Source: Candidatus Cloacimonadales bacterium (GTDB lineage: Bacteria; Cloacimonadota; Cloacimonadia; Cloacimonadales; JAFGVF01). From it: a DNA stretch of 64,000 bases. This document shows, in pieces, positions 39,062 through 56,897 of the stretch (position 1 is its first letter; each line of letters opens with the position of its first letter). The notes below the pieces were generated by a model that was not told where the DNA came from, searched no databases, and worked only from the letters and a program-made list of their open reading frames with translations. The position numbers were made by a program, and so were the translations under genes. The stretch covers positions 1,088,001 through 1,152,000 of the forward strand of contig OY782781.1 of NCBI GenBank assembly GCA_963678315.1, in the 5' to 3' direction.

Positions 39062-42000
39062 ATGAAGAAAAATTATTTAATGGTTATTTTACTACTATTA
39101 TGTGTAGGCTTTATGTATGCAGACCAATTAGAATTAACAGGCTCTGCATATGGTGCGGATAGTAATCCCACTGAAGTAACAATTGATATTACTGGCCTTC
39201 CTGCTGGTGCCACAATTACTGATTTATTAGTTACTACAGTCTGGGGAAACTCAACATATATTGGTTCTTGGTATGATGTACATTTAGAAATAAACGAAAC
39301 TTCTTATCCTAGTGTTGGTTTATTAACCGACCAATCTTACTCTGATATAAATGGTACTGTTTTAACAGGCCATAGCGTTAGAGCTTATACTGAAGATCTT
39401 GATGATTATGCAGATTCAAGTACTTTATATTTAACTGTAAAAGTTGAATATACACCTGCAGCTGGAACACCTGAAGCTCCAATTTTAACATTACCTGCTG
39501 ATGGTGCTCTTAACCAAGAAATTACAGGTTCTCTTGAATGGACAATTGGTGCAGATACAGATACAGCAACTTTATATATTGCAGATAATGCTGATTTCAC
39601 AGATGCTGATATGTATGCTGCAGCTACATCTCCATATGCCTATAGTGGTCTTGACTTAAATACAATGTATTACTGGAAAGTTGTAGCTATAAACAATGGT
39701 TCTGGAATCGAATCTCAATCATCAGTTTATTCATTTGCAACAGAATATGGCACTGCAACAGTACCTTATACTGAAAACTTTGATTCTTATGATGATGGCG
39801 ATTTACCTGATGGATGGAGTATTTTTAATAATTCAGGTTCTGCTTATACTTATACTGAAGTTGAGACTGGATATAGCGTATCAGGTTCAAATTCTTTTAG
39901 AATGTATAATTCTTCTTATACATCTTCTGATATCATTGCTTCTACACCAAGAATGCAAACAAATGGTAACAGAGTAAAATTCAGTGCTAAGGGATCATCT
40001 GATGGTACTATTCTTTATGTTGGCACAATGACAGATCCTTTAGATAATACTACATTTACAAGATTAGATTCTATTAGTTTAACAACTACACATACAATTT
40101 ATACTGTAAATCTATCAGATGTAGATGCAGTTGATTATGTATCATTTAAACATGGTCATGGTTCAACTTACAGCTATATATATCTTGATGATGTTTTAGT
40201 TGAAGAAGCTCCTCAAGGAACTCAAATTACTATATCACCTGAAGAAGCAGATTGTGGACATTATTTGCAAGGTGCTACAATAGCTGATTCTGTAATGGTA
40301 ACAGTTTCAAACACTGGTGGAACAACTGCTACTATAACAGAAATTTCAGTAGCTGACTTAAATAATTTTGCAGTTTCTTATACCTTTGCTGTGCCTTATG
40401 AACTTGAGGCTGGATCTAGTTTTGACGTATACGTTAAAACTAAATCAGATTACGTTGGAACACATGAATCAAACTTAGTTATCAAAGAACAAGATCCTGC
40501 TAATCCAATTGTTCCGATAATTCATAATGCAACTATTTTAAGTCAAATTTTAGACTCAACAGGTAATGATCATAATGATCCGTTTGTGCTTACTATAGCT
40601 GATTCAATCTTTGCTGAAGGTAATTCATCTGCTTATGATGATAATTATGATTTTGATTCTTCAGCGTCTGTTGTTTATAAACTTACTTTAGCTCAAGATA
40701 AATTAATGATCATCTCTTTTGAAGGTTCTAGTTTTGATACTAAAATGTGGGTTTTCAATTCATTCGATCAAATTGATACTGCAACACAAAATTCTGATGC
40801 ATGGTACTACAATGATGATGAATCAGGTTCAGGTACTGGCGGAAGATTTGTTGAAGGTCCAAAAACCAGAGATAGAGCAACTTGGTCAAGAATGGACCAA
40901 ACTTTAGCTGGCGCAGGTGATTATTACATAGTTCTTGCTGGTTATGGTACTGCATCAGGTGATTATCAACTTCATGTAATGTTAGAAGATATTCCAGCTC
41001 CTATGCAAGCTACTAACCCTAGCCCAGAAGACGATGCTATTGACCAAGCTACTAGCCTTACTCTTGAATGGACTAATGCACAATGGACATCTATGAATGA
41101 TATCTATTTTGGTACTGTTGGTAATATGACACTACTTGACGAAAATATTGACGTAACTGAAGAGTACTTAGTTGAAAACTTAAGTCCAACTACTGAATAT
41201 GAATGGAAAGTTGTTTGTAAAAACCTTAATGGTCAAACTCCTGCTGATTCAGTAGCAACTTGGTCATTCACTACAGTTGGTCAAGCTCCTGAAGCTGCTC
41301 AATACTTATCTCCTGATAGTTTAGGAACTGATGTTTCTTTATCTGGATCTTTGACTTGGGAAGCAGCAACTGGTGCTGATGGATATTATGTATATCTTTC
41401 AACTGATGAATTCTTCTCAGGTGTAACTCCTGAAGATGTAAACACAAACTCTTATGCATACACTAATTTAGACTATGATACCAGATACTTCTGGAAAGTT
41501 GTTCCATACAATGTTGTTGGTTCTCCTACAGAAGGAATTGAAGTATGGCAATTCGAGACTATGGCATCTCCTTTCCCTGAAGCTGATATAGTTTTTGATG
41601 GTGAAAGATCAACCGGTCAAAGTATGCCTATAGAACCATATTTTGGTTATACAATGACTCAAAATATCTATGCTCAAGAAGAAATTAATGTATCTGATTC
41701 AGCTATTAACTCTATTAGCTATCTCTACAACAATAATTCTGCTTGGTCAGAAACAATAGAAATTTATGCAAAACACACAACAAAAGATACTTTTGCTGAT
41801 ACTTATGATTGGGACCTAAATGGCTTCACTCAAGTTTACAGTGGAACTATGACAGTTGATACAACTAACCCTATCGTTACAATCGACTTTGATACACCAT
41901 TTATCTATAATAATACAGATAATCTATTAATTATGTTCTTTGCTACTGAATCTGGATATAATTCAGGCTCAGATGAATTCTATAACTATTCTGTAGAAGG

Positions 42001-44998
42001 AAATAGATCTCTTAATATATATAGTGATGGTACAAACTATTCTACTACTTTCCCTACAACTGTTCCTGCTGGGACACTTAAATCATATATTCCAGTTACT
42101 GGTTTTAATATTCAAGAAGTTTCAGCAGAATCTGAATTTACAGCTTCAGCAGATACATTAACATTTGAAGATCAAGTAATGGGAACTGTAAGTGATTCTC
42201 AAACACTTACAATAAGTAATATTGGTCTTGGTGACTTAGTAATCTCTAGTGTTGAACTTGTTGGTTCTAATGCTGTTGAATACGATTTCACAGACTTAAA
42301 TACTTATCCTGATACATTATCAACATCAGAAGTATTAAACTTTGCTGTTGTATATAGTCCTGAAACTGAAGGTGATCACCTTGCTACTATCGAAATTACT
42401 GATTCAGAAGCAACTGTTTATACTGTTGAGATAGTTGGTAATTCAGTAGATACAAATATCTATGCTGAAGATTTACCTTTCTCAAATAGTGGAGAAGATG
42501 ATAATTCATTCTTAGGTTGGTACTCATCAGTTCAATCAACTAGTGAATATGCAGCAATATCTATAAATGGTACAGAAACTAATGCTCATACTGGAACTAA
42601 CTCAGTTAGGTTCTACAACTCTGGTGATACTGCAGCAGAAATGATGCTTACTTCTCCAGTAATTGTTCCTGACTTTACTGGTCATAGAGCTAAATTCTGG
42701 ATTAAAGGTGATACAGCTGGTCAATTAATATTTGCTCTTTATGATGCTGATATGCAAATATTAACAGCTATTGATACTGTTGATGTTCCTCTTACTTATA
42801 CTCAATTCATCTATGAATTTGATACTAGTATGGATAACAAACGCTTAGTATTCAAACCAATCTTTGGTGGAACATATGATAATGTATATCTTGATGATGT
42901 AGAATTCGAAGTTACTCCACAAGTACCAGTAGCTGATATTTCAGTAACTGAATTAGCTTTTGGTGAAATTGAAGTTGGTGAAACATCAGGTGCTCAAACA
43001 ATTACTGTTTCTAATGTTGGTATTGGTGAAATGATTGTTTCAAATATTGAAATTACTGGTACTGATGCTGCTCTATTCGCATTTGACAATGTAGTTCTAC
43101 CTGACACTCTTATGGATAATGAAATGTTAGATATTAATGTAACATTCTCTCCAGATGCAGTAGGACCAAAAACAGCAACTCTTGTTATTTCAGATAATCT
43201 TAACAGAGCTTCTTACAATGTTACTTTAACTGGTGACGGTTGGGTTCCTCCTACTGGTTCTACATGTGTAGATCCTTTAGCATTAACTCTTCCAGCTGTT
43301 GATGTAACTGGTACAACTGAAGGCTTTGTTGATGACTATAGTTCTGCTGGTTTAGATATGTATTCTTCATATCTTGATGGTGATGATATTGTATATCAAT
43401 TTACATTAGAACAAGGTGCTTTACTTAATGGTACTGCAACTACAAGTGATGTAGCATTGGGCCTTTTCATAGTACAAGATGAACCAAACACAACAACTCC
43501 AGTTGAAGTTTTTGTATATGAAAATGCAGGATATAATGGAACATCTGTTACATTAACAGATGAATACCTTGCTGCTGGTGATTACTATCTAATCATCTCT
43601 TCATACGGTTACTATGCACAATCAATAGATTTCACACTTAACTTAACAGCAGATGCAATACCTGCTCCTGAAGCTGCTACTAACCCAACACCTGCTGATG
43701 AAGCAATTGATCAACCAACTGCTCTTACATTAGAATGGACCAATGCAGAATATACTGAAACAGTAGACTTATACTTCGGAACATCTCGTGGAAGAAGCAT
43801 GTCATTAGTTCTTGATAATGTGGCTGCTGTTGAAGAATATGCAGTAACTGATTTAACTCCAAATACTGAATATTCATGGAAAGTTGTTAATCGTAACTAC
43901 ACTGGTGAAACTGTTGATACACTTGTAACAACATGGACATTTACTACTATTGGATCTGCTCCTGAAGCAGTTACCTATACTTCTCCAACAGACGAATCTA
44001 CAGATAAAGAACTTAATGGTACTTTATCCTGGCAAGCTGCTACTGGTGCAAATGGATACAATGTATATCTTGATACAGATTCAACATTTACATCTGTAAC
44101 TCCTATAGACCAAACAGCAACTTCATACGACTATAGTGGCCTAGACTATTCAACTACTTACTACTGGAAAGTTGTTCCTTATAACGTAGTAGGTACACCT
44201 ACTGAAGGTGTTGAAATTTGGTCATTTACTACTATGGAAGATCCAACTATAGCTATGCCTGTTACTATAGATTTCGAAGGTTCTACTACTAATCCAGTTG
44301 AAATTACTGAAGAGAACTTTGGTATAACTAATGGACATAACACTATAACTAATGCTATGTATAAAAACATTTATAGCTCAAGCACTAATGGTTATATCCA
44401 ATTCCAAGCAATGAATGGTATTACCTCTTCTTCTGTAATTGAATTTGATTATAGAGTTACATTGTGGTCAGCTGGTACTACTGGCGTTACTTTTGAAGAT
44501 GATCACGATTATATTGTTGTAAATGCTTCTACTGATGCTGGTGCAACATTTACTCCAATAGCTTCAATAAACAATACTAACCATACTAATACAGCAGACT
44601 TTACAAGATTATCTGTTGATATCAGTGCTTATGAAGGTCAATCTGTTGTCTTCAGACTTGAAATGTTTGATGACACTGTAAATGATATGTGGTTTGACTT
44701 TGATAACTTCTACTTCGGTGAACCGGTTATTACTCAACCAGATGCTCCTGTTGATTTTGCAATTGTTGAAATTGCAACTGGTCTTGAGTTAACATGGACT
44801 GCTGTTGAAGGTGCTACAACTTATAAAGTTTATGGTTGTGCTACTCCAGACGGTGAATATACAATGATGACTGAAGGTCAAGTTGTAGAAGCTTCTTATG
44901 TTTACACAGAAGATGCTCCAATGATGTTCTTCAAGGTTTATGCATCTCCAGATGCTATGCCTTTAGGTAAGACAATTAGAAGAGCTAGAAGAAACTAA
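39062..44998 (+). CDS. Giant secreted/surface protein (Fn3-like, choice-of-anchor-D/ASH-like and adhesin-like beta-sandwich repeats)
   Basis: Signal peptide; repeated YYWKVV..WSFTT, LAFG..TITVSNxG..ATLVI and Y(I/V)YLDDV modules; 1978 aa, acidic. Confidence 0.85.
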   Translation: MKKNYLMVILLLLCVGFMYADQLELTGSAYGADSNPTEVTIDITGLPAGATITDLLVTTVWGNSTYIGSWYDVHLEINETSYPSVGLLTDQSYSDINGTVLTGHSVRAYTEDLDDYADSSTLYLTVKVEYTPAAGTPEAPILTLPADGALNQEITGSLEWTIGADTDTATLYIADNADFTDADMYAAATSPYAYSGLDLNTMYYWKVVAINNGSGIESQSSVYSFATEYGTATVPYTENFDSYDDGDLPDGWSIFNNSGSAYTYTEVETGYSVSGSNSFRMYNSSYTSSDIIASTPRMQTNGNRVKFSAKGSSDGTILYVGTMTDPLDNTTFTRLDSISLTTTHTIYTVNLSDVDAVDYVSFKHGHGSTYSYIYLDDVLVEEAPQGTQITISPEEADCGHYLQGATIADSVMVTVSNTGGTTATITEISVADLNNFAVSYTFAVPYELEAGSSFDVYVKTKSDYVGTHESNLVIKEQDPANPIVPIIHNATILSQILDSTGNDHNDPFVLTIADSIFAEGNSSAYDDNYDFDSSASVVYKLTLAQDKLMIISFEGSSFDTKMWVFNSFDQIDTATQNSDAWYYNDDESGSGTGGRFVEGPKTRDRATWSRMDQTLAGAGDYYIVLAGYGTASGDYQLHVMLEDIPAPMQATNPSPEDDAIDQATSLTLEWTNAQWTSMNDIYFGTVGNMTLLDENIDVTEEYLVENLSPTTEYEWKVVCKNLNGQTPADSVATWSFTTVGQAPEAAQYLSPDSLGTDVSLSGSLTWEAATGADGYYVYLSTDEFFSGVTPEDVNTNSYAYTNLDYDTRYFWKVVPYNVVGSPTEGIEVWQFETMASPFPEADIVFDGERSTGQSMPIEPYFGYTMTQNIYAQEEINVSDSAINSISYLYNNNSAWSETIEIYAKHTTKDTFADTYDWDLNGFTQVYSGTMTVDTTNPIVTIDFDTPFIYNNTDNLLIMFFATESGYNSGSDEFYNYSVEGNRSLNIYSDGTNYSTTFPTTVPAGTLKSYIPVTGFNIQEVSAESEFTASADTLTFEDQVMGTVSDSQTLTISNIGLGDLVISSVELVGSNAVEYDFTDLNTYPDTLSTSEVLNFAVVYSPETEGDHLATIEITDSEATVYTVEIVGNSVDTNIYAEDLPFSNSGEDDNSFLGWYSSVQSTSEYAAISINGTETNAHTGTNSVRFYNSGDTAAEMMLTSPVIVPDFTGHRAKFWIKGDTAGQLIFALYDADMQILTAIDTVDVPLTYTQFIYEFDTSMDNKRLVFKPIFGGTYDNVYLDDVEFEVTPQVPVADISVTELAFGEIEVGETSGAQTITVSNVGIGEMIVSNIEITGTDAALFAFDNVVLPDTLMDNEMLDINVTFSPDAVGPKTATLVISDNLNRASYNVTLTGDGWVPPTGSTCVDPLALTLPAVDVTGTTEGFVDDYSSAGLDMYSSYLDGDDIVYQFTLEQGALLNGTATTSDVALGLFIVQDEPNTTTPVEVFVYENAGYNGTSVTLTDEYLAAGDYYLIISSYGYYAQSIDFTLNLTADAIPAPEAATNPTPADEAIDQPTALTLEWTNAEYTETVDLYFGTSRGRSMSLVLDNVAAVEEYAVTDLTPNTEYSWKVVNRNYTGETVDTLVTTWTFTTIGSAPEAVTYTSPTDESTDKELNGTLSWQAATGANGYNVYLDTDSTFTSVTPIDQTATSYDYSGLDYSTTYYWKVVPYNVVGTPTEGVEIWSFTTMEDPTIAMPVTIDFEGSTTNPVEITEENFGITNGHNTITNAMYKNIYSSSTNGYIQFQAMNGITSSSVIEFDYRVTLWSAGTTGVTFEDDHDYIVVNASTDAGATFTPIASINNTNHTNTADFTRLSVDISAYEGQSVVFRLEMFDDTVNDMWFDFDNFYFGEPVITQPDAPVDFAIVEIATGLELTWTAVEGATTYKVYGCATPDGEYTMMTEGQVVEASYVYTEDAPMMFFKVYASPDAMPLGKTIRRARRN

Positions 44999-45439: not shown

Positions 45440-48400
45440 ATGAAAAAACACCTTTTTTTACTTATATTTGTTATTTTTTCAATAACTAGTATATTCTCAT
45501 TAACCTACACCTTAAGTTTAGCTGATAGCTACGGTGATGGTTGGAATGGTGGATCTATTGATGTCCTCGTTAATGATGTTGTCGTTATTGACGACGCGAC
45601 AATCTCTTCAGGTAACTCATATACAGAGACTTTTGAAGTTAATGGTCTGGATGTAATTACTACTGCATACACTGCTGGTAGTTGGGGTAGTGAAAACTCA
45701 TATCAAATTTTAAACGAAACAGGAACAGTTGTAGCCGAATCAGGACAATCTGGAATTCCTAGTGATGTTGAATACACTGTACCTGAAGTTATTGCTGGTA
45801 CACCTGATGTACCAACAGTTCTTGGTCCTTCTAACAACTCACAAAACCTAGCACTTGATACAACTATTGAGTGGACAACTGGTGAAAATACAGAGTTAGT
45901 AAAATTATACTTCTCTGAAAATGCTGATTTAACAGATGCGATTATTGTTAATCCAGCAACAACTCCTTATGTACCAACATTAGAAAACAATGTTACCTAT
46001 TACTGGAAACTTGTTGCTGTTGGTCCTACAAATATTGAAGTTGAAACACAAATTTATAACTTTACAACAGAATATGGAATGGTTGAGCTTCCTTATAGTG
46101 AAAACTTTGACGATATTTCATTTAATGAAACTCCAGCTGGCTGGTCTTTTATAAATACTTCTACATCTACATATGCTTGGATCAATGTTAAAGATATAGC
46201 TCCTTTTAATGGAAGTAATCATGTAAGAATGTATAATTCATATTACACAGATGTTGAGCTAGCTGCAGTAACTCCAAAAGTTGTTTTTGACGGTAATAGA
46301 GTTAGATTCCAAGCTCAAGCTGATGATACAGATGTTTCTGTTGTTGTCGGATATATGACTGATCCGTCAAACTTAGAAACATTTACAGAAATTACAACAT
46401 TCAATTTAACCGCTGAATATGCTTCATATAATGTAGCTTTACCTAGCAATGTAACTGATGGATATCTTGCTTTCAGACATGGTATGACTGCTAATTATCA
46501 AACTCTTGATATAGATGATGTTAATATTGAAGAAATTCCTTCTACTCCAATAGCACAAATAGCAACTGATGACTTAGATTTTGGATCTTCAGTTCTTAAT
46601 GAAACTTCAGAAGCTCAGGATGTAACTCTTACTAATATTGGTGGTGGAACACTTAATGTTTCTTCTGTAACAATTACAGGTACAAATGCAGACCAATTCT
46701 TAGTTTCAGACAATAGTGATTATGCACTAGAAGCTAATGAATCAATGGTTGCAAGTGTTAGCTATAATCCAACTCTAGCTGGTCAGCATACTGCTACTCT
46801 TGAAATTACAGATGATTTAGATACTTACCAAATAGCTTTAACAGGCCAAGGTGTTGATACAAATATCTATGAAATCAATATTCCTTATACACAAGATTTT
46901 GAAACTGAAGAGGGTTTCTTAGGTTGGACATCTAATATTAACTCTACAAGTGATTATGCTTCAGCAGAAAGATATAGTTCATCTTATTCTGCTAATAATG
47001 GAACTTATTCATTTAAATTCTATAATTCAAGTGATACAGATGCTGTATGTGACCTAGTTTCACCAGTAATAGTACCAGACATGGATGCTTATAGAGTGAA
47101 ATTCTTTGCTAAAGGTGATGGCTCAATTGTTGTAGGTAAATTAAATACTAGTGATGAATTTACCTTTGTTGATTCATTAGATTTAAACTCTACATACACT
47201 GAATATACCGTTAATATGGAAGTAAGCAGAGCTAATGAAAGATTAGTTTTCAGAACAACTTTTGATAGTTCATCAGATTATGTGTATCTTGATGATGTAT
47301 TATTCGAAGAAGCTCCAGAAGGTTCTTTAGTGACTATCAGCCCAGATTCACATGATTTTGAAAGTAAAATGATTAATAGTGAATCTGCTCCTATAACATT
47401 TACTATTTCTAATGATGGAGTTATTGCTTCAGAAATAACAGAAATTTCAATAAATGGTGAAGGATTTGTGCTTTCACATGAAATTGAAAGTTTTTCTTAT
47501 CTATTAGAACCAAACACATCTATTGATGTTCAAGTTGCGTTTGCTCCAGAAGCTATCATGAATTATAATGCTCAGCTTGTTGTAAAAGAAGCTACTTCAA
47601 ATCCGTTTGTTCCTAATGTATATACATCTGATTTAACTGGTCAAGGTCTTGATAATCAAGGTAACGACCATACAAATCCATTTGTTATGTCACTTGCTGA
47701 TACTATTGTTGTAACAGGCAATACAGAAGACTTTGAAAATACCTACAGCTGGGCTACATCTCCATCTGTTGTTTACTCAATTACTTTAGAAGAAACTCAA
47801 TTAATGAGTGTTTCTTTAGAAGGTACTTCTTGGGATACAAAACTTTGGATATTTAACTCTACAGAGCAAATAGAATCAGCTACAGTTGGTGCAGATGCTT
47901 GGTACTTCAATGATGATGAAGGTTCTGCTTCAACAGGTGGTAGAAAAGATAGAACAAGAGCTACTTGGTCTAAAATGAATGATACATTCACACCTGCTGG
48001 AACATATTATATTGTTGTTACAGGTTATAATTCAAATTCAGGTGAATATACTTGTACAGTTGTTACAAGTGAAGTCCCAGCACCTCAATATACTACTAAT
48101 CCAACACCTGCAGATTCATTAACAGGTGTTCCAACAGCTCAACTCCTTAGCTGGTCTAACCCTGAATATACAGAAACTATTGATTTATGGTTTGGTACTG
48201 AAGGTAACATGAACTTAGTTCTTGATAATGTTGATGCTGTTGAAGAATATCAACCTACAGAATTAACTTCTAATACAACTTACCAATGGAAAGTTATTGC
48301 ACGCAACTTTAATGGCCAAACACCTGCTGACTCAGTAGCAACCTGGTCATTTACTACAATCGGTCAAGCTCCAGACCCTGTAGCTTACACTTCACCTGCA

Positions 48401-51016
48401 GATGCTTCAGTAGATACTGATTTAACTGTTACATTAAATTGGAACAGCTCAGCTTCTGCTGATGAATACAAAGTTTACTTTGCTACAAGTGAAGATTTAT
48501 CTGCTGTTACTCCTGTTGTTCAAACAGAAACTTCTTATGAAGTTAGTGACTTAGACTACGCAACTACTTATTATTGGATGGTTGTTCCTTCTAATATTAT
48601 TGGTGATGCTGAAGGTGCTGAAACATGGTCTTTCACTACTATGGAATCTCCATTCCCAGCAGCTGACCTTGTTTTTGATGGTGAAAGATCTACTAATCAG
48701 AATATGCCAATAGAACCATTTTATGGTTATACATTAACACAAAATATCTACTTACAGTCAGAACTAAATATTGAAAATCATGCTATCTCAGAGATTTCTT
48801 ATTTATACAACAATAATAGTGCTTGGACTGATAATGTAATTATTTATATGGGTCATACTTCAAAAACTGAATTTGAAAGTACTACTGACTGGATAAATAC
48901 TGATTTAACTGAAGTGTTTAATGGTGATTTTACTACAACTACTGATAATCCAGTTGTTAACATTTCTTTAAGTACACCATTTGTCTATAATAACAGCGAT
49001 AATTTAATCGTTTGTGTATTTGAAAACTCTTCAGGTTATCATGCAAGCAATGATGAATTCTATAACTTCTCAGTATCTAGTAATAGATCACTAAACTACA
49101 AGAACGATTCAACTAATCCTTATACATTAGGTTTTGATGCTTTACCAACTGGTACTTTAAAACCTTATCTTCCTGTTACTGGTTTCAACTTCCAAGAAGT
49201 CTCTGCAGAGCCTCAATTTACAGCAAGTTCTGATACTTTATTCTTTGTTGACCAAATTATGAATACTGTAAGTGGTATCCAGAACCTAGTAATTAGTAAC
49301 TTAGGGCTTGGTGATTTAACTATTAACTCAGTAGCATTAGCTGGTGCAAATGCTGTAGAGTTTGATTTAACAGATGAAAATGCGTATCCTGCAACATTAG
49401 CTACTTCAGAAATATTGACAGTTTCTCTTGTTTATAGTCCAGAAACTGCTGGTGACCACCTTGCAACAATAGAAATTGTCGATGGTGATAATACAAGTCA
49501 TATAGTTGAATTAGTTGGTAATTCAATAGATACAAATATCTATGAAACTGATTTACCTTATTCTAATGGTTTTGAAGAAGAGACTAGTCTTCTAGGTTGG
49601 ACTTCTGTTGTTGAATCAACTTCAGATTATGCATCACTAGAACTTACAACTTCATCTTCTTATATCCATTCTGGTTCAAAAGCTATGAAACTATATAACT
49701 CTGGTGATATTGATGCTAACTTATCTCTTACATCTCCAATAATTGTTCCTGATTTTGATGGTTATAGATTAAAATTCTGGGCTAGAAGTAATTCAACTAG
49801 TAGATTAGTTATATCTACTATTGATCAAGCTATGGAAAATACAACATTAATAGATACTATTGATGTTACTTCTACATATACTGAATTCTTATATGATTTC
49901 CCTATAGTTAGAGCTAACACTAGATTAGTATTTACTCCAGTATTTACATCTACTTATAATAGTGTTTATCTTGATGATATCAGTTTTACAGCTACACCAT
50001 TAGTAGCTATCGCAGAAGTAAGTGAAAATCAACTTGCTTTTGGTGATGTTCCTGTTGAAGATACTTCATCATCTCAAACTGTTACTATTACTAATATTGG
50101 TGCAAGTATTCTTAATGTTAACAATATTGAAATTATTGGTGATGATGCAGAAATGTTCTCATTCTCTACAGAAGAAGAAGCTTCAACTGCTCTTGCTAGT
50201 CAAGAAAACTTAGAAATATCAGTTACTTTTATTCCTTCATCAGAAGGTGAAAAGACTGCAACATTAGTTATAACTGATGATTTAACTAGAACAGCTCATA
50301 ATGTTACTCTTACAGGTAATGGTTGGGTTATTCCTGCTGGTACAGATTGTTCTGATCCTTTAGCTTTAACACTTCCTGCTGTTGATGTTACTGGTAATAC
50401 AGGTGACTATGGTGATGATTATAGTTCAGCTATGGTTTCTCCTTCATCAAGTTACCTTAATGGTGACGATGTTGTTTACCAATTCACAGTTAATACAGAT
50501 GTAACTCTTGATGGTACAATTACAACCACTGGTTCTTGGATGGGTGCATTTATTCTTGCAGACGAACCAAATGCAACTACACCGGCTGCTGTTGAAATTC
50601 AAAAAACTACATCAGGAACTAGCTTAACATACTCAGCAGAAGCTTTACCGGCTGGTACTTATTTCTTGATCATATCAACTTACCCAACTCCTCAAGCAAT
50701 TGATTATACTATCAACTTAACTGCTACTCCAGTAGTAACCCAACCAGATACTCCTGTAGATTTCGTAATCGAAAGCTCAGAAGCTGGTATGGTTCTAACA
50801 TGGAATGAAGTTGAAGGTGCTACAACTTATAAAGTTTATGGATATGAAAGCCCTAGTGCTATTCCAGTTGACTTAACAAATGAAACACCTATAGCACAAG
50901 TTGAAACTGAAACTTACACATACACAGAAGATGCTCCTATGATGTTCTTCAAAGTTATTGCATCTACAGATGAAATGACTTCTGCAAAAACAATTAGAAG
51001 AGCTAGAAGAAACTAA
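45440..51016 (+). CDS. Giant secreted/surface protein, paralog of 39062-44998
   Basis: Signal peptide; DSYGDGWNG; same modules; same YTEDAPMMFFKV..KTIRRARRN end. Confidence 0.85.
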   Translation: MKKHLFLLIFVIFSITSIFSLTYTLSLADSYGDGWNGGSIDVLVNDVVVIDDATISSGNSYTETFEVNGLDVITTAYTAGSWGSENSYQILNETGTVVAESGQSGIPSDVEYTVPEVIAGTPDVPTVLGPSNNSQNLALDTTIEWTTGENTELVKLYFSENADLTDAIIVNPATTPYVPTLENNVTYYWKLVAVGPTNIEVETQIYNFTTEYGMVELPYSENFDDISFNETPAGWSFINTSTSTYAWINVKDIAPFNGSNHVRMYNSYYTDVELAAVTPKVVFDGNRVRFQAQADDTDVSVVVGYMTDPSNLETFTEITTFNLTAEYASYNVALPSNVTDGYLAFRHGMTANYQTLDIDDVNIEEIPSTPIAQIATDDLDFGSSVLNETSEAQDVTLTNIGGGTLNVSSVTITGTNADQFLVSDNSDYALEANESMVASVSYNPTLAGQHTATLEITDDLDTYQIALTGQGVDTNIYEINIPYTQDFETEEGFLGWTSNINSTSDYASAERYSSSYSANNGTYSFKFYNSSDTDAVCDLVSPVIVPDMDAYRVKFFAKGDGSIVVGKLNTSDEFTFVDSLDLNSTYTEYTVNMEVSRANERLVFRTTFDSSSDYVYLDDVLFEEAPEGSLVTISPDSHDFESKMINSESAPITFTISNDGVIASEITEISINGEGFVLSHEIESFSYLLEPNTSIDVQVAFAPEAIMNYNAQLVVKEATSNPFVPNVYTSDLTGQGLDNQGNDHTNPFVMSLADTIVVTGNTEDFENTYSWATSPSVVYSITLEETQLMSVSLEGTSWDTKLWIFNSTEQIESATVGADAWYFNDDEGSASTGGRKDRTRATWSKMNDTFTPAGTYYIVVTGYNSNSGEYTCTVVTSEVPAPQYTTNPTPADSLTGVPTAQLLSWSNPEYTETIDLWFGTEGNMNLVLDNVDAVEEYQPTELTSNTTYQWKVIARNFNGQTPADSVATWSFTTIGQAPDPVAYTSPADASVDTDLTVTLNWNSSASADEYKVYFATSEDLSAVTPVVQTETSYEVSDLDYATTYYWMVVPSNIIGDAEGAETWSFTTMESPFPAADLVFDGERSTNQNMPIEPFYGYTLTQNIYLQSELNIENHAISEISYLYNNNSAWTDNVIIYMGHTSKTEFESTTDWINTDLTEVFNGDFTTTTDNPVVNISLSTPFVYNNSDNLIVCVFENSSGYHASNDEFYNFSVSSNRSLNYKNDSTNPYTLGFDALPTGTLKPYLPVTGFNFQEVSAEPQFTASSDTLFFVDQIMNTVSGIQNLVISNLGLGDLTINSVALAGANAVEFDLTDENAYPATLATSEILTVSLVYSPETAGDHLATIEIVDGDNTSHIVELVGNSIDTNIYETDLPYSNGFEEETSLLGWTSVVESTSDYASLELTTSSSYIHSGSKAMKLYNSGDIDANLSLTSPIIVPDFDGYRLKFWARSNSTSRLVISTIDQAMENTTLIDTIDVTSTYTEFLYDFPIVRANTRLVFTPVFTSTYNSVYLDDISFTATPLVAIAEVSENQLAFGDVPVEDTSSSQTVTITNIGASILNVNNIEIIGDDAEMFSFSTEEEASTALASQENLEISVTFIPSSEGEKTATLVITDDLTRTAHNVTLTGNGWVIPAGTDCSDPLALTLPAVDVTGNTGDYGDDYSSAMVSPSSSYLNGDDVVYQFTVNTDVTLDGTITTTGSWMGAFILADEPNATTPAAVEIQKTTSGTSLTYSAEALPAGTYFLIISTYPTPQAIDYTINLTATPVVTQPDTPVDFVIESSEAGMVLTWNEVEGATTYKVYGYESPSAIPVDLTNETPIAQVETETYTYTEDAPMMFFKVIASTDEMTSAKTIRRARRN

Positions 51017-51609: not shown

Positions 51610-53145
<1,536 letters not shown>

Positions 53146-53234: not shown

Positions 53235-53311
<77 letters not shown>

Positions 53312-53316
53312 GTTGT

Positions 53317-53392
53317 GGGGGATTAGCTCAGTTGGGAGAGCACCTGCTTTGCAAGCAGGGGGTCAACGGTTCGAGCCCGTTATTCTCCACCA
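53317..53392 (+). tRNA. tRNA-Ala(TGC)
   Basis: GGGGGAT/ATTCTCC acceptor stem with G3:U70, TT-TGC-AA loop, encoded CCA. Confidence 0.97.
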
Positions 53393-54562
53393 TATTTTTT
53401 TATCAAAGGAAACTAAGATGTTTAAACAGTAAATAGAGTGTAATATAGAGTGTGTAAGATTTTTTTTTGTAAGAGCAAAAGAGCACATGGTGGATGCCTT
53501 GGCACCAAATGGCGATGAAGGACGTGGTTAACTGCGAAAATCTTCGGTGAGCTGTAAGCAAGCTTCGACCCGGAGGTATCCGAATGGGGCAACCCGGCAC
53601 AAGTAATGTTGTGTCATCCGGTTTACCGGAGGCGAACGAGGGGAACTGAAACATCTAAGTACCCTCAGGAAGAGAAAGTAAAAACGATTTCCTAAGTAGC
53701 GGCGAGCGAACGGGGAAGAGCCTAAACCAGTTGAATAACTGGGGTTGTGGGACTACAATGTAGAGAAGTAATTGATAGACGAATTGATCTGGGAAGTTCA
53801 ACCAGAGAAGGTGAAAGTCCTGTAGTTAAAATTGATTACCATCTTAGTAGCATCCCGAGTAGGTCGGAACACGAGAAATTCCGATTGAATCTGCGAGGAC
53901 CATCTCGTAAGGCTAAATACGTTTGGTGACCGATAGTGAAACAGTACCGTGAGGGAAAGGTGAAAAGGACCCCAGAAGGGGAGTGAAATAGAACCTGAAA
54001 CCGTGTGTTTACAAGCAGTCAGAGCTTAATAGCGATGGCGTGCCTTTTGCATAATGAGCCAACGAGTTAATCTATTCAGCGAGGTTAAGTTTTACAGAAA
54101 TGTAGCCGAAGCGAAAGCGAGTGTTAATAGCGCGTTAAGTTGATTGGATTAGACCCGAAACCGGGTGATCTACCCATGACCAGGTTGAAGGCAAGGTAAC
54201 ACTTGCTGAAGGACCGCACCAACTAATGTTAAAAAATTAGTGGATGAGTTGTGGGTAGGGGTGAAAGGCCAAACAAACCCGGAGATAGCTGGTTCTCTTC
54301 GAAACATATTTAGGTATGGCCTCAGGCAAAAGTTTATAGGAGGTAGAGCACTGAATGGGCTAGGGGACTCACCAGTTTACTGAACCCAATCAAACTCCGA
54401 ATGCCTATAAATGATACCTGGGAGACAGCCCGTGGGGGATAAGCTTCACGGACGAAAGGGAAAGAACCCAGACCACCGGCTAAGGTCCCCAATTTTATGC
54501 TAAGTGAGAAAGGATGTTTAATTGCATAGACAGCCAGGATGTTGGCTTAGAAGCAGCCACCA

Positions 54563-54596
<34 letters not shown>

Positions 54597-54645
54597 GTAA
54601 TGCACCGAAGATGATCGGGACTAAAGCATAGAACCGAAGCCGTGG

Positions 54646-54961
54646 CCCAGCACTTATTTATATTTTTTTTAGGAGTTCGTATGTACTATGTTTATGTGTT
54701 AATAAGTAGAAGTAAAGAGAAATTGTATATAGGATATACATCAAATTTACAACAGCGAGTTAAACAACATAATAGTAAACATAAAGGATATACTAATAAC
54801 GACATATGGGATTTAGTATATTATGAAGCATACTACTCAGAGAAAGATGCAAGACAACGTGAGCAAAAACTCAAACAACATGGAAACAGTAAGAGATTTT
54901 TGAAAGAACGTATAAGTAATAGTATTGAAACAATCTAAAAAAAATACAAATAAGTGCTGGG
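54646..54961 (+). mobile_element. 23S rRNA intervening sequence (IVS) at helix 45
   Basis: AT-rich 316-bp insert between ACCGAAGCCGTGG and GGTAGAAGAGCATTC; 27-bp terminal inverted repeat with one mismatch. Confidence 0.92.
54681..54938 (+). CDS. GIY-YIG nuclease family protein (85 aa) encoded in the 23S IVS
   Basis: AGGAG then ATG; YVYVL..LYIGYTSNLQQRVKQHN..LVYYE..ARQREQKLK. Confidence 0.9.
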   Translation: MYYVYVLISRSKEKLYIGYTSNLQQRVKQHNSKHKGYTNNDIWDLVYYEAYYSEKDARQREQKLKQHGNSKRFLKERISNSIETI

Positions 54962-55669
54962 GGTAGAAGAGCATTCTGAACAGCGACGAAGATTAACTGT
55001 GAGGTTAGTTGGAGCGTTCGGAAGAGACGATGTTGGCATGAGTAACGATAATGTGAGTGAGAAACTCACACACCGCAAGTCCAAGGTTTCCTCAGTAAAG
55101 ATAATCTTCTGAGGGTAAGCCGGCCCCTAAGGCGATGCCGAACGGCGCAGCTGATGGGAACCAGGTTAATATTCCTGGGCCTGTTATAATGAGTGATGGA
55201 GTGACGCAGTAATGCTGCACAGACTACTGTTGGATTAGTAGTTGAATGTATGTAGGAGACTTTATAGGCAAATCCGTAGAGTCAATCCGAGGTACAGGAC
55301 GATAGCATAGCTAATAAAGTGTGTTTATAGGACTGCCGAGAAATAGCTTCTAAACGTTGAATTATAACAGACCGTACCCTAAACCGACACAGGTGGACGA
55401 GGAGAGTATCCTCAGGTGTTCGAGAGAATTCTGGTTAAGGAACTAGGCAAAATGACCCCGTAACTTCGGGAGAAGGGGTGCCACGTTAGTGTTAGTATGT
55501 ACAATACAAAGCATGAAGTGGCCGCAGTGAAGAGGCCCAAGCGACTGTTTATCAAAAACACAGGTCTGTGCGAAGAAGTAATTCGAAGTATACAGACTGA
55601 CACCTGCCCGGTGCTGGAAGGTTAAATGGAGAGGTTAGCTTAATTGCGAAGCTTTGAAATGAAGCCCCA

Positions 55670-55757
<88 letters not shown>

Positions 55758-55824
55758 GGGCACTGTCTCAACCAGGAACTCGGTGAAATTGTAATAGCGG
55801 TGAAGATACCGCTTACCCGCGAAC

Positions 55825-55855
<31 letters not shown>

Positions 55856-56194
55856 TCTTGGCATTGTACATTGGTTTAGTATGTGTAGGATAGGTGGGAG
55901 GCTATGACTCATGGTCGCTAGATTGTGATGAGCCGTTGTTGAAATACCACCCTTATTAAATTGATTTACTAACGATATGAAAACATATCGGACATTGCCA
56001 GGTGGGCGGTTTGACTGGGGCGGTCGCCTCCTAAAAAGTAACGGAGGCTTACCAAGGTTCCCTCAAGATGGTTGGTAATCATCTGCAGAGCATAAAGGTA
56101 TAAGGGAGCTTGACTGCGAGACTGACGGGTCGAGCAGGTAGGAAACTAGGTCTTAGTGATCCGGCGGTTCTGAATGGAAGGGCCGTTGCTCAAA

Positions 56195-56227
<33 letters not shown>

Positions 56228-56283
56228 ACCGCCCAAGAGTTCATATCGACGGCGGTGTTTGGCACCTCGATGTCGGCTCAACT

Positions 56284-56334
<51 letters not shown>

Positions 56335-56337
56335 AGT

Positions 56338-56384
<47 letters not shown>

Positions 56385-56502
56385 TTCGTGGGCGTAGGAG
56401 ATTTGAGAGGATCTTCATTTAGTACGAGAGGACCGGTGTGGACGAACCTCTGGTGTATCGGTTGTGGCGCCAGCTGCATTGCCGAGTAGCTAAGTTCGGA
56501 AC

Positions 56503-56535
<33 letters not shown>

Positions 56536-56694
56536 AACCTCAAGATTAGATCTCCCCTTAGAGTCATTGGAGACTACAATGTATATAGGTCACAGGTGTA
56601 CGCATAGCAATATGTTCAGCCGAGTGATACTAATAACTCGATCGTCTTACTTATTAAATTTTATACACTCTATAGCTTTATTTATTATGAATAA

Positions 56695-56779: not shown

Positions 56780-56897
<118 letters not shown>

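Follow-up and report, generated by a model that had tools for sequence, protein, structure and literature searches.

Intervening sequences (IVSs) of bacterial rRNA genes have been known for decades, and neither their origin nor their means of spread has an accepted explanation. The locus described here raises the question of what a 316-nt insert with its own nuclease gene is, and how such an insert comes to reside within a 23S rRNA gene. It is located in a 64,000-nt window, the whole stretch of DNA that was analysed, from a closed, single-contig genome of 2.99 Mb with four rrn copies. Brown et al. reportedly described in 2015 non-intron rRNA insertion sequences of CPR bacteria that encode GIY-YIG proteins. 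Classical 23S IVSs occupy helix 25 or 45 in Salmonella, Yersinia, Campylobacter, Leptospira and other bacteria, and are cut by RNase III without religation of the rRNA (in part after PMC11270868 and PMC2672173). The ORFs known from IVSs are of the four-helix 23S_rRNA_IVP (PF05635) type (in part after PMC11270868).

Position and anatomy of the insert

The host 23S rRNA gene occupies positions 53467–56654 of the forward strand (Rfam RF02541, 2779.9 bits, model positions 1–2925) and is 3188 nt long including the insert. The operon has the order 16S-tRNA-tRNA-23S-5S according to Rfam, with the 16S gene at 51610–53145, the two tRNAs at 53235–53308 and 53317–53389, and the 5S gene at 56781–56897. 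The 316-nt element at 54646–54961 (forward strand) is present where the native tip of helix 45 is missing. In a local alignment to the Rfam model, the entire insert falls in the terminal loop of a hairpin (model positions 1206–1226), immediately 5′ of GGUAG. Alignment to the E. coli 23S rRNA places it between E. coli positions 1165 and 1187, which corresponds to helix 45. The rrn copies of the sister genus and contigs of relatives contain a hairpin of 16–17 nt precisely between positions 54645 and 54962. Rfam searches over the insert region, at the gathering cut-off and at E ≤ 0.01, reported LSU rRNA as the sole match and no ribozyme. The covariance placement and these searches uphold the claim, made when the locus was first read, of a ribozyme-free insert at helix 45.

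The insert is AT-rich, and its ends form a terminal inverted repeat with the left arm at 54646–54672 and the right arm at 54935–54961, neither assigned to a strand. The arms pair over 27 bp with a single A/C mismatch at arm position 15 (inverted-repeat score of 24 over 27). The left arm contains the conserved core CCAGCACTTATTT at 54647–54659, which fits the family consensus C-C-R-G-C-A-C-Y-Y-A-W-Y-T, and the right arm contains the conserved core AAATAAGTGCTGG at 54948–54960 and the stop codon of the gene. A Shine-Dalgarno-like AGGAG at 54671–54675 (forward strand), 5 nt upstream of the ATG, straddles the end of the left arm, its initial AG being the final two bases of the arm. GGAG or AGGAG likewise precedes the start codons of many relatives. 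The length of the insert, its 27-bp stem with one mismatch, and the overlap of the two arms with the Shine-Dalgarno sequence and the stop codon were all as the earlier note had described them. The 346-nt region folds at −76 kcal/mol versus −50.0 ± 3.5 for 100 shuffles (z = −7.4), none of which equalled it. The insert shares with classical IVSs the replacement of the helix-45 tip, the long stem formed by complementary ends, and the AT-rich composition.

The insert encodes a minimal GIY-YIG nuclease

In contrast to classical IVSs, the present insert carries a GIY-YIG gene. This gene of a stand-alone GIY-YIG nuclease domain (PF01541) occupies 54681–54938 of the forward strand, stop codon included. 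The 85-codon ORF is intact, from the ATG at 54681 to the TAA at 54936–54938. The Pfam GIY-YIG profile matches residues 1–70 at 61.5 bits (cut-off 22.6; E = 9.4e-17), and 23S_rRNA_IVP (PF05635) is absent among the Pfam matches at E ≤ 1. Residues Y5, Y16, G18, Y19, R26 and E61 are invariant in 30 relatives, and H30 is conserved in at least 90% of them. Two motif tyrosines, an arginine, a histidine and a metal-binding glutamate presumably have the catalytic roles known from work on I-TevI and UvrC. The Pfam match and the alignment of 30 sequences agree with the earlier view of the product as a minimal GIY-YIG domain that keeps these residues.

The AlphaFold2 model of the protein (pLDDT 88.7) has secondary structure elements in the order E-E-H-E-H-H-H, consistent with a three-stranded sheet flanked by helices. 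The nearest solved proteins by sequence profile are the UPF0213 proteins BH0048 and EF2693 (1zg2, E = 2.3e-11; 1ywl, E = 2.3e-07), followed by SLX1 (E = 0.007–0.13). Foldseek ranks 1–13 have TM scores of 0.58–0.67, every one with E > 1e-3, and the twelve of these thirteen that are listed are all GIY-YIG proteins. I-TevI follows at Foldseek rank 15 and has a profile E-value of 0.23. No NCBIfam equivalog matched, TIGR01453 scoring 16.6 against a cut-off of 56.05. The protein is a single domain without a separate DNA-binding module. It shares with the I-TevI-type nucleases of group I introns the catalytic superfamily and the situation of a selfish gene within an essential gene. It differs from them in the absence of a ribozyme from the insert and of a DNA-binding domain from the protein, and in its TIGR01453 score below the cut-off. 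The earlier note had offered homing or a structure-specific nuclease as the function of the protein. The second alternative fits better, with UPF0213 and SLX1, and not I-TevI, as the closest solved proteins.

SLX1 depends on SLX4 and contains a RING domain. The present protein shares with SLX1 and UPF0213 proteins (BH0048, EF2693; COG2827-type) the nearest profile and fold and a single catalytic domain of about 85–100 residues. The setting inside hairpins of stable-RNA genes is specific to the present family, and BH0048 is without its WxLVYYEAY strand, which forms the modelled dimer interface. The homodimer model scored 0.71 versus 0.00 for the best control, three runs shared at least 96% of the contacts, and the partner pLDDT was at least 80. 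In the calibration of the dimer tool, the mark was reached by 20 of 30 proteins solved as pairs and by 1 of 23 solved as single chains. The modelled interface is made by the family-specific VYYEAY strand (residues 44–53) together with residues 77–85. According to the model, the protein probably forms a symmetric homodimer of the SLX1/UPF0213 type.

The ratio dN/dS was computable in 38 of 60 pairs with at least 70% shared residues, synonymous change being saturated or absent in the rest. It was 0.04–0.43 in 37 of the 38 pairs and 0.85 in one intragenomic Lagierella pair. Judged by these ratios, the GIY-YIG family is under purifying selection.

Terminal repeats and gene-less copies

Comparison of the other rrn copies, which the earlier note had named as a check, revealed two forms of insert that share their ends. 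The gene-bearing form of 316 nt is found in copies L003 and L004, and copies L001 and L002 have a gene-less form of 110 nt whose 14–17-nt arms are the same. A single synonymous base (GAG/GAA, codon 54) separates the two gene-bearing copies. Because the second copy is in another rrn operon of a single-contig genome, the insert is not an assembly artefact. Across the whole genome, the 14-nt terminal sequence occurs only in the eight arms of the four helix-45 inserts and, with one mismatch, at one place elsewhere. The interior of the 110-nt insert was compared with three gene-bearing inserts, and the scores were inside the shuffle range (120.3 versus 118.8 ± 4.5; the others were similar). Descent of the 110-nt insert from a gene-bearing copy therefore lacks support here.

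The family has a conserved terminal inverted repeat, CCRGCACYYAWYT, which is common to different sites and phyla. Paired CNNGCAC and its exact reverse complement flank 50 of 165 non-duplicate ORFs versus none of 583 displaced controls. Many of the remaining ORFs are covered by variants such as GCCAC, GCTAC and CTCAC. A stricter motif produced 31 short matches (26–127 nt) beside 36 long ones, counts that include the copies of this genome under several locus ids. Gene-less copies with the same ends were found at loci L064, L149, L052, L036 and L042, and in L001 and L002 of this genome. The Desulfovermiculus operon L064 contains three near-identical 108-nt copies, located in 16S h44 and in the 23S gene near E. 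coli positions 170 and 274; its helix 45 bears a further copy of 68 nt, and its helix 25 a gene-bearing one. Locus L149 has two 104-nt gene-less copies at helices 25 and 45, and a 69-nt copy in L052 retains 24 and 22 nt of the ends of the gene-bearing copy. At rRNA sites there was no sign of a target-site duplication; instead of inserting cleanly, the element seems to take the place of 8–16 nt of the native hairpin. The first reading of the locus had overlooked both that the stem is a terminal inverted repeat conserved across sites and phyla and that gene-less mini-copies exist.

Distribution of the family

From each collection the 80 best matches were taken as loci of relatives; the confirmed stretches numbered at least 582 and at least 588. 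The site fractions therefore describe the closest relatives only. Among the 179 ORFs at 159 of these best-match loci, 98 are inside rRNA genes or the 16S leader (the later part of this count took in same-strand rRNA matches only), 15 are 8–83 nt upstream of a tRNA, and three are in or adjoin RNase P RNA according to Rfam. Four further relatives have an RNase P P4 motif immediately 3′ of the right arm. In the clade linked to tRNAs, 11 nt of the tRNA 5′ end are present as a direct repeat. The best matches share the hairpin design at about a dozen 16S and 23S helix tips in many phyla, many of those fetched belong to CPR bacteria, and the same ends also occur in intergenic hairpins.

The distribution of the family is patchy and does not follow the relationships of the hosts. 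The nearest ORFs among the best matches, 59–61% identical to the present one, occupy four sites: helix 45, the neighbourhoods of E. coli positions 274 and 1862, and 16S h6. The rRNA of their hosts is about 76–77% identical to that of this genome. A tree of 172 rows, built from 87 columns, has 50 changes of the site label versus 102.8 in shuffles; strong support is restricted to 13 of its 157 inner branches. A survey of the phylum found matches at E ≤ 1e-20 in 6 of 231 other genomes. All six are inside the 23S gene, at three sites, and two of them carry internal stops. None of the 11 genomes from the taxonomic family of the host matched at E ≤ 1e-20. Helix 45 of the sister genus has either a 16-nt hairpin or an unrelated gene-less insert of 211–256 nt with a variant of the terminal motif, and its state varies between rrn copies within one genome. 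The insert thus resembles classical IVSs also in its sporadic occurrence among relatives and its heterogeneity among rrn copies. The rrn copies, the sister genus and the phylum survey agree with the IVS anatomy and the patchy, copy-heterogeneous distribution expected from the first reading.

Relation to known elements

The ends of the present insert belong to a sequence-conserved family found at many helices and stable RNAs, which distinguishes it from classical IVSs as these are described. In PMC11270868 (Tsurumaki et al. 2024), the consulted sections describe GIY-YIG ORFs of CPR/Patescibacteria within rRNA insertions that are neither group I nor group II introns, occur at several sites in less conserved stem-loops, and have a low incidence. 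The same sections do not report conserved ends, gene-less partners, or RNase P and tRNA contexts; the supplementary tables may hold more. Conserved ends, gene-less partners, RNase P and tRNA contexts, and non-CPR hosts are likewise undescribed in the consulted parts of PMC11270868, PMC2672173, PMC10946416 and PMC3457768 taken together. Within these sources, the published GIY-YIG genes in non-intron rRNA insertions are from CPR bacteria only. The present insert shares with the CPR insertions a GIY-YIG ORF within a non-intron rRNA insertion. It differs from them in its host, a 3-Mb genome with four rrn copies that probably belongs to Cloacimonadota and not to CPR. The host rRNA is 82–85% identical to that of the closest Cloacimonadota or Cloacimonadales loci.

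The family has features of transposons with terminal inverted repeats, namely terminal inverted repeats conserved in sequence across copies and hosts and, at several sites of one genome, gene-less copies that share these ends. Target-site duplication at rRNA sites and a transposase of known class, which are further features of such transposons, were not found. The Correia/NEMIS repeats of Neisseria are MITE-type palindromic repeats whose RNA hairpins are cut by RNase III, and REP/REPIN-RAYT systems offer a second comparison. Both have in common with the present family the conserved inverted ends, the matching autonomous and non-autonomous copies in one genome, and the hairpin RNA. The present enzyme is a GIY-YIG nuclease and not a DDE or HUH transposase, and the present targets are tips of stable-RNA helices without target-site duplication at rRNA sites. 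The GIY-YIG domain is the sole ORF of the element and, to our knowledge, falls outside the known transposase classes. We know of no GIY-YIG enzyme that acts as a transposase.

Proposed mechanism and alternative explanations

The presence of the family with and without the gene suggests that rRNA "intervening sequences" are mobile DNA. We consider it somewhat probable that the present insert belongs, as an autonomous member, to a widespread family of small selfish DNA elements with hairpin ends. Each such element consists of a conserved terminal inverted repeat, a ribosome-binding site, a GIY-YIG gene of about 85 codons, and the matching repeat. The elements occupy surface helix tips in 16S, 23S and RNase P RNA, and positions directly in front of tRNAs. 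The insert would be transcribed within the pre-23S rRNA, where its paired ends would merely lengthen helix 45. Since the paired ends would only extend a surface helix, the ribosome presumably tolerates the insert. The genome contains a gene for RNase III, and excision by this enzyme is likely. Its cut in the long stem would fragment the 23S rRNA and set free a stem-closed RNA that may serve as the mRNA of the nuclease; the earlier note had envisaged this RNA as a very abundant mini-mRNA. The DNA substrate of the nuclease, presumably a dimer, may be the palindromic ends, a hairpin or a cruciform. By acting there, the enzyme may promote copying of the element into other copies and helix tips and mobilise gene-less mini-copies in trans, and the survivors would be insertions at tolerated tips only.

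In two wastewater metatranscriptome contig sets, the depth is zero over 54674–54945; contigs cannot reveal absence, and the presence of the carrier strain is unproven. One exact-match RNA contig begins at 54962, although contigs cannot reveal true RNA ends. Across the junction, the RNA contig sets hold only the plain-hairpin alleles of relatives. Two raw oligo-dT runs match only the conserved stretch 54436–54639 with 90–95% likeness, which indicates that these reads come from other organisms.

We regard it as possible, with considerable reserve, that a so far unrecognised class of palindromic DNA elements, specialised in the hairpin tips of stable-RNA genes (rRNA, RNase P RNA and tRNA leaders), uses the mini GIY-YIG dimer as its mobility enzyme, and that many "classical" gene-less IVSs are non-autonomous, MITE-like derivatives of such elements. 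Against the selfish-element reading, no mobility event was observed, and within this genome the terminal sequence is almost confined to the four helix-45 inserts. The conserved ends could have a role at the RNA level instead, and survival only at tolerated sites could yield the spectrum of sites without targeting.

The best-surviving alternative, which we find unlikely, is that a homing-type nuclease parasitises pre-existing palindromic IVS hairpins. The dimer would recognise and cut the palindromic apex of a gene-less hairpin, and the ORF would be inserted when the break is repaired from a gene-bearing copy. The "terminal repeats" would then be the halves of a split recognition site, and the hairpins would spread by other means. 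This alternative accommodates the gene-bearing and gene-less forms with the same arms at the same site of different rrn copies, the conserved palindromic ends, and the modelled symmetry of the dimer with its clear separation from controls. The type of insert is also tracked across the rrn copies by two SNPs (alignment columns 372 and 1894), a pattern that long conversion tracts would produce. However, the near-identical gene-less copies at three non-homologous sites of L064 imply that the hairpins themselves move, and there is no second mobility gene in sight. The interiors of the gene-less copies are also long (66–127 nt), unlike a simple palindrome.

Improbable, in our assessment, is a classic homing endonuclease that recognises the sequence of the IVS-less helix-45 allele of 23S rDNA. 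Seven other relatives among the best matches are at helix 45, and on the tree the helix-45 label shows clustering (8 rows with 5 changes, versus 7.9 in shuffles). However, none of the four rrn copies of the genome is IVS-less at helix 45. The homing into IVS-less rrn copies that the earlier note had envisaged is at odds with the 110-nt gene-less inserts with the same ends in the other two copies. The nearest relatives are at four different rRNA sites, one of them in 16S, in unrelated hosts, which argues against recognition of the helix-45 sequence. The same ends at all sites, including RNase P RNA and intergenic hairpins, and the 85-residue catalytic domain standing alone, far below the TIGR01453 cut-off, also speak against it. 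Classic site-specific homing is poorly supported.

We see a similarly small chance for a host or RNA-level role, in which the protein would be an element-encoded factor that processes the insert from stable RNAs by binding or cutting their conserved stem, or an SLX1-like caretaker of heavily transcribed stable-RNA genes. In the caretaker version, expression of the nuclease would be coupled to rRNA synthesis. The conserved stem is located where RNA processing must occur, and the nearest characterised relative is SLX1. The gene is co-oriented with stable RNA genes; the only opposite-strand rRNA matches are in L054, whose ORF is outside the 16S gene. Of the 21 Cloacimonadota loci with lower scores that were fetched (L241–L261), 10 have a separate paralogue adjoining tRNA-Asn. 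On the other side, all characterised GIY-YIG enzymes that we know of cut DNA, and the patchy distribution, decayed copies and orphan gene-less copies form the pattern of a parasite and not of a host function. A dead relic or assembly artefact is very improbable and was rejected, as nothing specific favours it beyond RNA contigs without depth over the insert interior, which cannot reveal absence, and against it stand the second copy one synonymous base apart in a single-contig genome, the intact ORF with all catalytic positions kept, and the purifying selection on the family.

Implications

The preferred reading, that of a selfish element with hairpin ends, makes the helix-45 IVS of a non-CPR bacterium one copy of a family that bears the marks of a mobile element. 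These marks are ends conserved across phyla and about a dozen sites, a nuclease gene under purifying selection, and gene-less copies with matching ends at other helices of the same operons. The family links classical IVSs, the unexplained GIY-YIG genes in rRNA insertions of CPR bacteria, and small stand-alone GIY-YIG genes adjacent to tRNAs. There are also practical consequences, since gene callers skip ORFs within rRNA genes, and such inserts break rRNA assemblies and amplicon surveys. Cultured carriers, namely Methylomicrobium sp. wino1, Methylotuvimicrobium sp. KM1, Lagierella massiliensis SIT14 and Deferribacter thermophilus BMA, make the question testable. If the nuclease is indeed the mobility enzyme, GIY-YIG proteins would include a new kind of transposase-like enzyme, and the origin and spread of IVSs would be explained.

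Structure of the helix-45 insert

The rrn operon in the window has the order 16S-tRNA-tRNA-23S-5S, and its 23S gene (53467-56654) contains the insert at 54646-54961 in the loop of the helix-45 hairpin. In the local Rfam alignment, model positions 1206-1226 form a hairpin whose terminal loop takes up the whole insert, and the conserved GGUAG is located directly 3' of the insert position. Alignment to an E. coli 23S places the insert between positions 1165 and 1187, which corresponds to helix 45. The ends of the insert form a 27-bp pairing with a single A/C mismatch, and the region folds much better than shuffled sequences (z = -7.4). The loop is filled by an ORF of 85 codons (ATG at 54681, TAA at 54936-54938). 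The last bases of the left arm are also the first of AGGAG (54671-54675), and the right arm contains the stop codon. Wastewater RNA contigs of relatives, from two runs, join 54645 to 54962 through 16-17-nt hairpins, and the borders of the element are therefore fixed to the base. Every detail described in the earlier note is present: the insert, its paired ends, the ORF, the Shine-Dalgarno overlap, the stop codon in the right arm, and the GIY-YIG residues. Directly upstream of the rrn operon are two very long + strand ORFs of 1978 and 1858 aa (39062-44998 and 45440-51016).

The nuclease is under selection and is modelled as a dimer

The ORF product scores 61.5 bits against Pfam GIY-YIG (cut-off 22.6), and its relatives conserve the motif tyrosines as well as Arg26, His30, and Glu61. 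NCBIfam contains no fitting model for the ORF, and the score against its group I intron endonuclease family is 16.6, below the cut-off of 56.05. The solved proteins nearest in a profile search are UPF0213 BH0048 (E 2.3e-11) and EF2693, followed by SLX1 and a plant homologue; I-TevI has an E-value of 0.23. The AlphaFold2 model is confident (pLDDT 88.7), and Foldseek ranks the solved proteins in the same order, with all E-values above 1e-3.

A model of two copies of the protein reached 0.71, compared to 0.00 for the best control, with at least 96% of contacts agreeing between runs and a partner pLDDT of at least 80. In the calibration of the dimer tool, this mark was reached by 20 of 30 proteins solved as pairs and by 1 of 23 solved as single chains, counts that hold only roughly because the alignment was the analysis's own. 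The modelled interface is formed by antiparallel pairing of the family-specific VYYEAY strand and by the C-terminal helix. The modelling supports a symmetric dimer, which would suit the palindromic ends of the element.

Sixty pairs of relatives have at least 70% of residues in common, and dN/dS was computable for 38 of them. Values of 0.04-0.43 in 37 pairs, rRNA-resident ones included, show that the gene is under selection; the remaining pair, intragenomic in Lagierella, has a value of 0.85. The ORFs of this pair, at the E. coli 1862 site of Lagierella massiliensis (3056-3304 of fetched loci L050 and L101), differ by 9.5 non-synonymous versus 2.5 synonymous changes, and selection may be relaxed on one copy.

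Relatives reside in rRNA genes and at other stable RNA genes

A large protein collection contained 1043 matches to the nuclease, the best 61-64% identical and most of them on short contigs. We fetched the best 79 of at least 582 confirmed stretches from the genome collection and the best 80 of at least 588 from the metagenome collection, and mapped them by nhmmer with the rRNAs of the window, by ARAGORN, and, for 40 loci, by Rfam. Among the 179 ORF hits in these best-matching loci, 98 are inside rRNA genes or the 16S leader on the same strand, 15 are 8-83 nt upstream of a tRNA, three are at RNase P RNA identified by Rfam, one is just after a tRNA, and for 62 an RNA gene was not detected. In four of the 62, the P4 motif of RNase P directly follows the right arm, and the hairpin therefore occupies the place of P3.

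The copies in 23S genes of the best-matching loci, with the window counted among them, are located (E. coli numbering) at 174-232 (1 ORF), 274-298 (7), helix 25 (33), helix 45 (8), 1361-1369 (1), 1711-1749 (4), 1862-1877 (22), and about 2810 (4). Those linked to 16S are at 80-100 (6 ORFs), 181-224 (3), 442-490 (3), 1433-1477 (4), and in the leader (3). Helix names at these sites besides 25 and 45 are those that we presume to apply. Several 23S genes contain two gene-bearing copies at different helices. According to record titles, the hosts belong to Cloacimonadota, Planctomycetota, Methylococcales and other Gammaproteobacteria, Bacillota (Lagierella), Deferribacter, Desulfobacula, Desulfovermiculus, Cyanobacteria, Omnitrophota, and many lineages of the Candidate Phyla Radiation (CPR).

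Loci with a gene-bearing hairpin in the P3 place of RNase P RNA are L053 (2460-2800), L092 (2470-2790), L160, L174, L066, and L110, with GAGGAAAGTCCG directly after the right end; Rfam detects the RNA in three loci and misses four CPR loci. In a tRNA-linked clade with ends CCCCTCAC...GTGAGGGG (L178, L189, L195, L198, L085, L063, and L098; each ORF at about 1501-1749 or 2501-2749 of its locus), a tRNA begins immediately after the right end, and its first 11-12 nt are repeated in the 11 nt that precede the left end; each repeat fits its own tRNA. The same repeat is found in L103 at a hairpin without a gene (about 2760-2870), and it resembles either a duplicated target or a reconstructed 5' end of the tRNA. 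Omnitrophota elements (L043, L051, L062, L068, and L069) have ends extended by GAATT(T/A)RA and are in intergenic DNA, bracketed by ACTTACG-type hairpins, where Rfam found no RNA gene. CPR loci without an RNA gene (L049, L065, L078, L090, L168, L172, L197, and L059) have conserved sequence just outside the ends (...CTT / element / GCTCAAT...), followed by another hairpin; the region may be a structured RNA not yet recognised or an intergenic target that the element favours. The 1484-nt contig L035, binned to a Desulfurococcales archaeon MAG, contains a bacterial-type 23S fragment, 72-76% identical to that of the window, with a helix-25 GIY-YIG element, and is probably a mis-binned bacterial contig.

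Conserved ends and gene-less partners

The sequences flanking the ORFs pair with a median duplex energy of -43.1 kcal/mol, compared to -28.7 in cross-locus controls. The left outer end common to all element sites is C-C-R-G-C-A-C-Y-Y-A-W-Y-T, the right end is its complement, and the ends in the window, CCAGCACTTATTT, agree with the consensus. In the best-matching loci, the strict paired motif (CNNGCAC with its exact reverse complement) brackets 50 of 165 non-duplicate ORFs and none of 583 displaced control intervals; the looser GCAC...GTGC is found at 61 of 165 and 17 of 583, respectively. The end variants GCCAC, GCTAC, and CTCAC account for many of the remaining ORFs. The stem was kept while the proteins diverged to about 50% identity. 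Since the outer-end sequence is common to elements wherever they are located, the stem is, judged by sequence comparison, borne by the element and not an extension of native helix 45. By comparison with uninterrupted rRNAs, helix 25, helix 45, E. coli 274, and E. coli 1862 each have a native tip hairpin of 8-16 nt, in place of which the element is found; no target-site duplication was seen at these four sites.

A scan of all fetched loci for the paired motif identified 36 long, gene-sized hairpins and 31 short ones of 26-127 nt, counts in which the copies of this genome appear under several locus ids. The short hairpins occupy further helix tips in operons that also contain a gene-bearing copy, and their ends match this copy over 14-24 nt. 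One Desulfovermiculus operon (L064) contains three near-identical 108-nt copies, at 16S h44 and in 23S near E. coli 170 and 274; its helix 45 contains a 68-nt copy, and its helix 25 a gene-bearing one. In L149, helices 25 and 45 each have a 104-nt copy, and a 69-nt copy in L052 retains the ends of the gene-bearing copy, including a decayed ribosome-binding site. Long and short hairpins together form the pattern of autonomous and non-autonomous transposable elements. In Methylococcales-type hosts, a separate gene-less hairpin of about 98-100 nt with family ends is present on each side of the ORF; these composite, nested inserts of about 500 nt are at helix 25 or E. coli 1862 (L048, L056, L073, L075, L084, L095, L105, L158, L221, and L040).

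Copies within the genome and its phylum

The genome is a single 2.99 Mb contig with four rrn operons, all with an insert in helix 45. Two operons, that of the window and one at 2.79 Mb, contain the gene-bearing 316-nt form and differ in it at one synonymous base. The other two contain a gene-less 110-nt form, the arms of which equal those of the long form over 14 nt; it is the gene-less partner of the long form, and relatedness of its interior to gene-bearing interiors was not detectable. The insert type co-segregates with two SNPs, about 800 nt upstream and about 400 nt downstream. Beyond the rrn inserts, the 14-nt end was not found in the genome, except for one match with one mismatch. The genome encodes RNase III. 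Compared with the other three rrn copies, L001, one of the gene-less ones, has two short divergent blocks, at 23S alignment columns 624-632 and 2174-2178; the changes look compensating and are in hairpins beyond the insert.

Three more distant GIY-YIG paralogues in the genome, all without inverted repeats, are located directly after tRNA-Asn, about 560 nt downstream of tmRNA, and away from any RNA neighbour. The tRNA-Asn-linked paralogue (G000:C1:11365-11589 in contig coordinates; L008 1501-1725) is on the same strand and 38-50% identical. It was also found in 10 of 21 lower-scoring Cloacimonadota loci fetched (L241, L243, L244, L246, L247, L250, L253, L256, L257, and L259); it appears to be inherited vertically and to differ from the rRNA-resident type.

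The closest matches to the host rRNA, at 82-85% identity, are loci titled Cloacimonadota or Cloacimonadales, and the host is a non-CPR bacterium. The distribution of the element is patchy. In a sister genus with about 90% identical flanks, helix 45 is a plain 16-nt hairpin or has a 211-256-nt gene-less insert with different ends, and its state varies among rrn copies within one genome; more distant genera have hairpins of 12-24 nt. A close relative of the gene was found in none of the 11 other genomes of the host family. Among 231 other genomes of the phylum, six have a relative at E <= 1e-20, in every case inside 23S and co-oriented: three near E. coli 274, two of these with internal stops, one at helix 25, and two at helix 45.

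In a tree of 172 rows and 87 columns, with strong support at 13 of 157 inner branches, site labels change 50 times, compared to 102.8 in shuffles. Copies linked to tRNA, 16S, and 23S each tend to cluster, with frequent site switches inside the 23S group. The nearest relatives of the window gene (59-61% identity) are at helix 45, near E. coli 274, near E. coli 1862, and at 16S h6, in hosts with rRNA only about 76-77% identical to that of the window, and the phylum's own copies have 52-59% protein identity. These sites and identities indicate horizontal transfer and site switching rather than one site-specific lineage.

Proposed mechanism of spread

Based on these observations, a mechanism can be proposed. 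The element would be transcribed within pre-23S rRNA, where its ends may extend helix 45 at the ribosome surface, which would account for its tolerance. By analogy with classical intervening sequences (IVSs), the stem is probably cut by host RNase III, and the cut would release a stem-closed RNA that could serve as the template for translation of the nuclease. The nuclease, probably a dimer, presumably acts on DNA, either at palindromic ends or at hairpin or cruciform structures. This activity may carry the element from one rrn copy to another, to other helix tips, and into other species, and may do so in trans for mini-copies.

In the main alternative, the nuclease homes to gene-less palindromic hairpins, and the element ends are the two halves of its target site. 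Support for classic homing to the helix-45 sequence is poor: helix 45 has an insert in all four rrn copies of this genome, which leaves no empty allele as a target. The earlier note, which proposed a ribozyme-free selfish element removed by RNase III and possibly homing into IVS-less rrn copies, is thus upheld in its observations and in part of its interpretation, and its homing proposal is poorly supported in this genome, where none of the four copies lacks an insert. A host or RNA-level function and a relic or artefact are likewise poorly supported.

Two publications describe classical IVSs, at helices 25 and 45, as cut by RNase III without religation, and as sporadic and thought to be horizontally transferred (PMC11270868, PMC2672173); the former also reports GIY-YIG ORFs in rRNA insertions of CPR bacteria (PMC11270868). 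In the open-access literature searched, including a 2024 review on rDNA transposable elements and a 2012 survey of variation in rRNA genes, we found no description of the conserved ends, gene-less partners, RNase P and tRNA contexts, or non-CPR hosts. The window provides a clean case from a closed non-CPR genome, in which the classical helix-45 site is occupied by autonomous copies in two operons and by gene-less copies in the other two, and the element family may explain the nature of rRNA intervening sequences.
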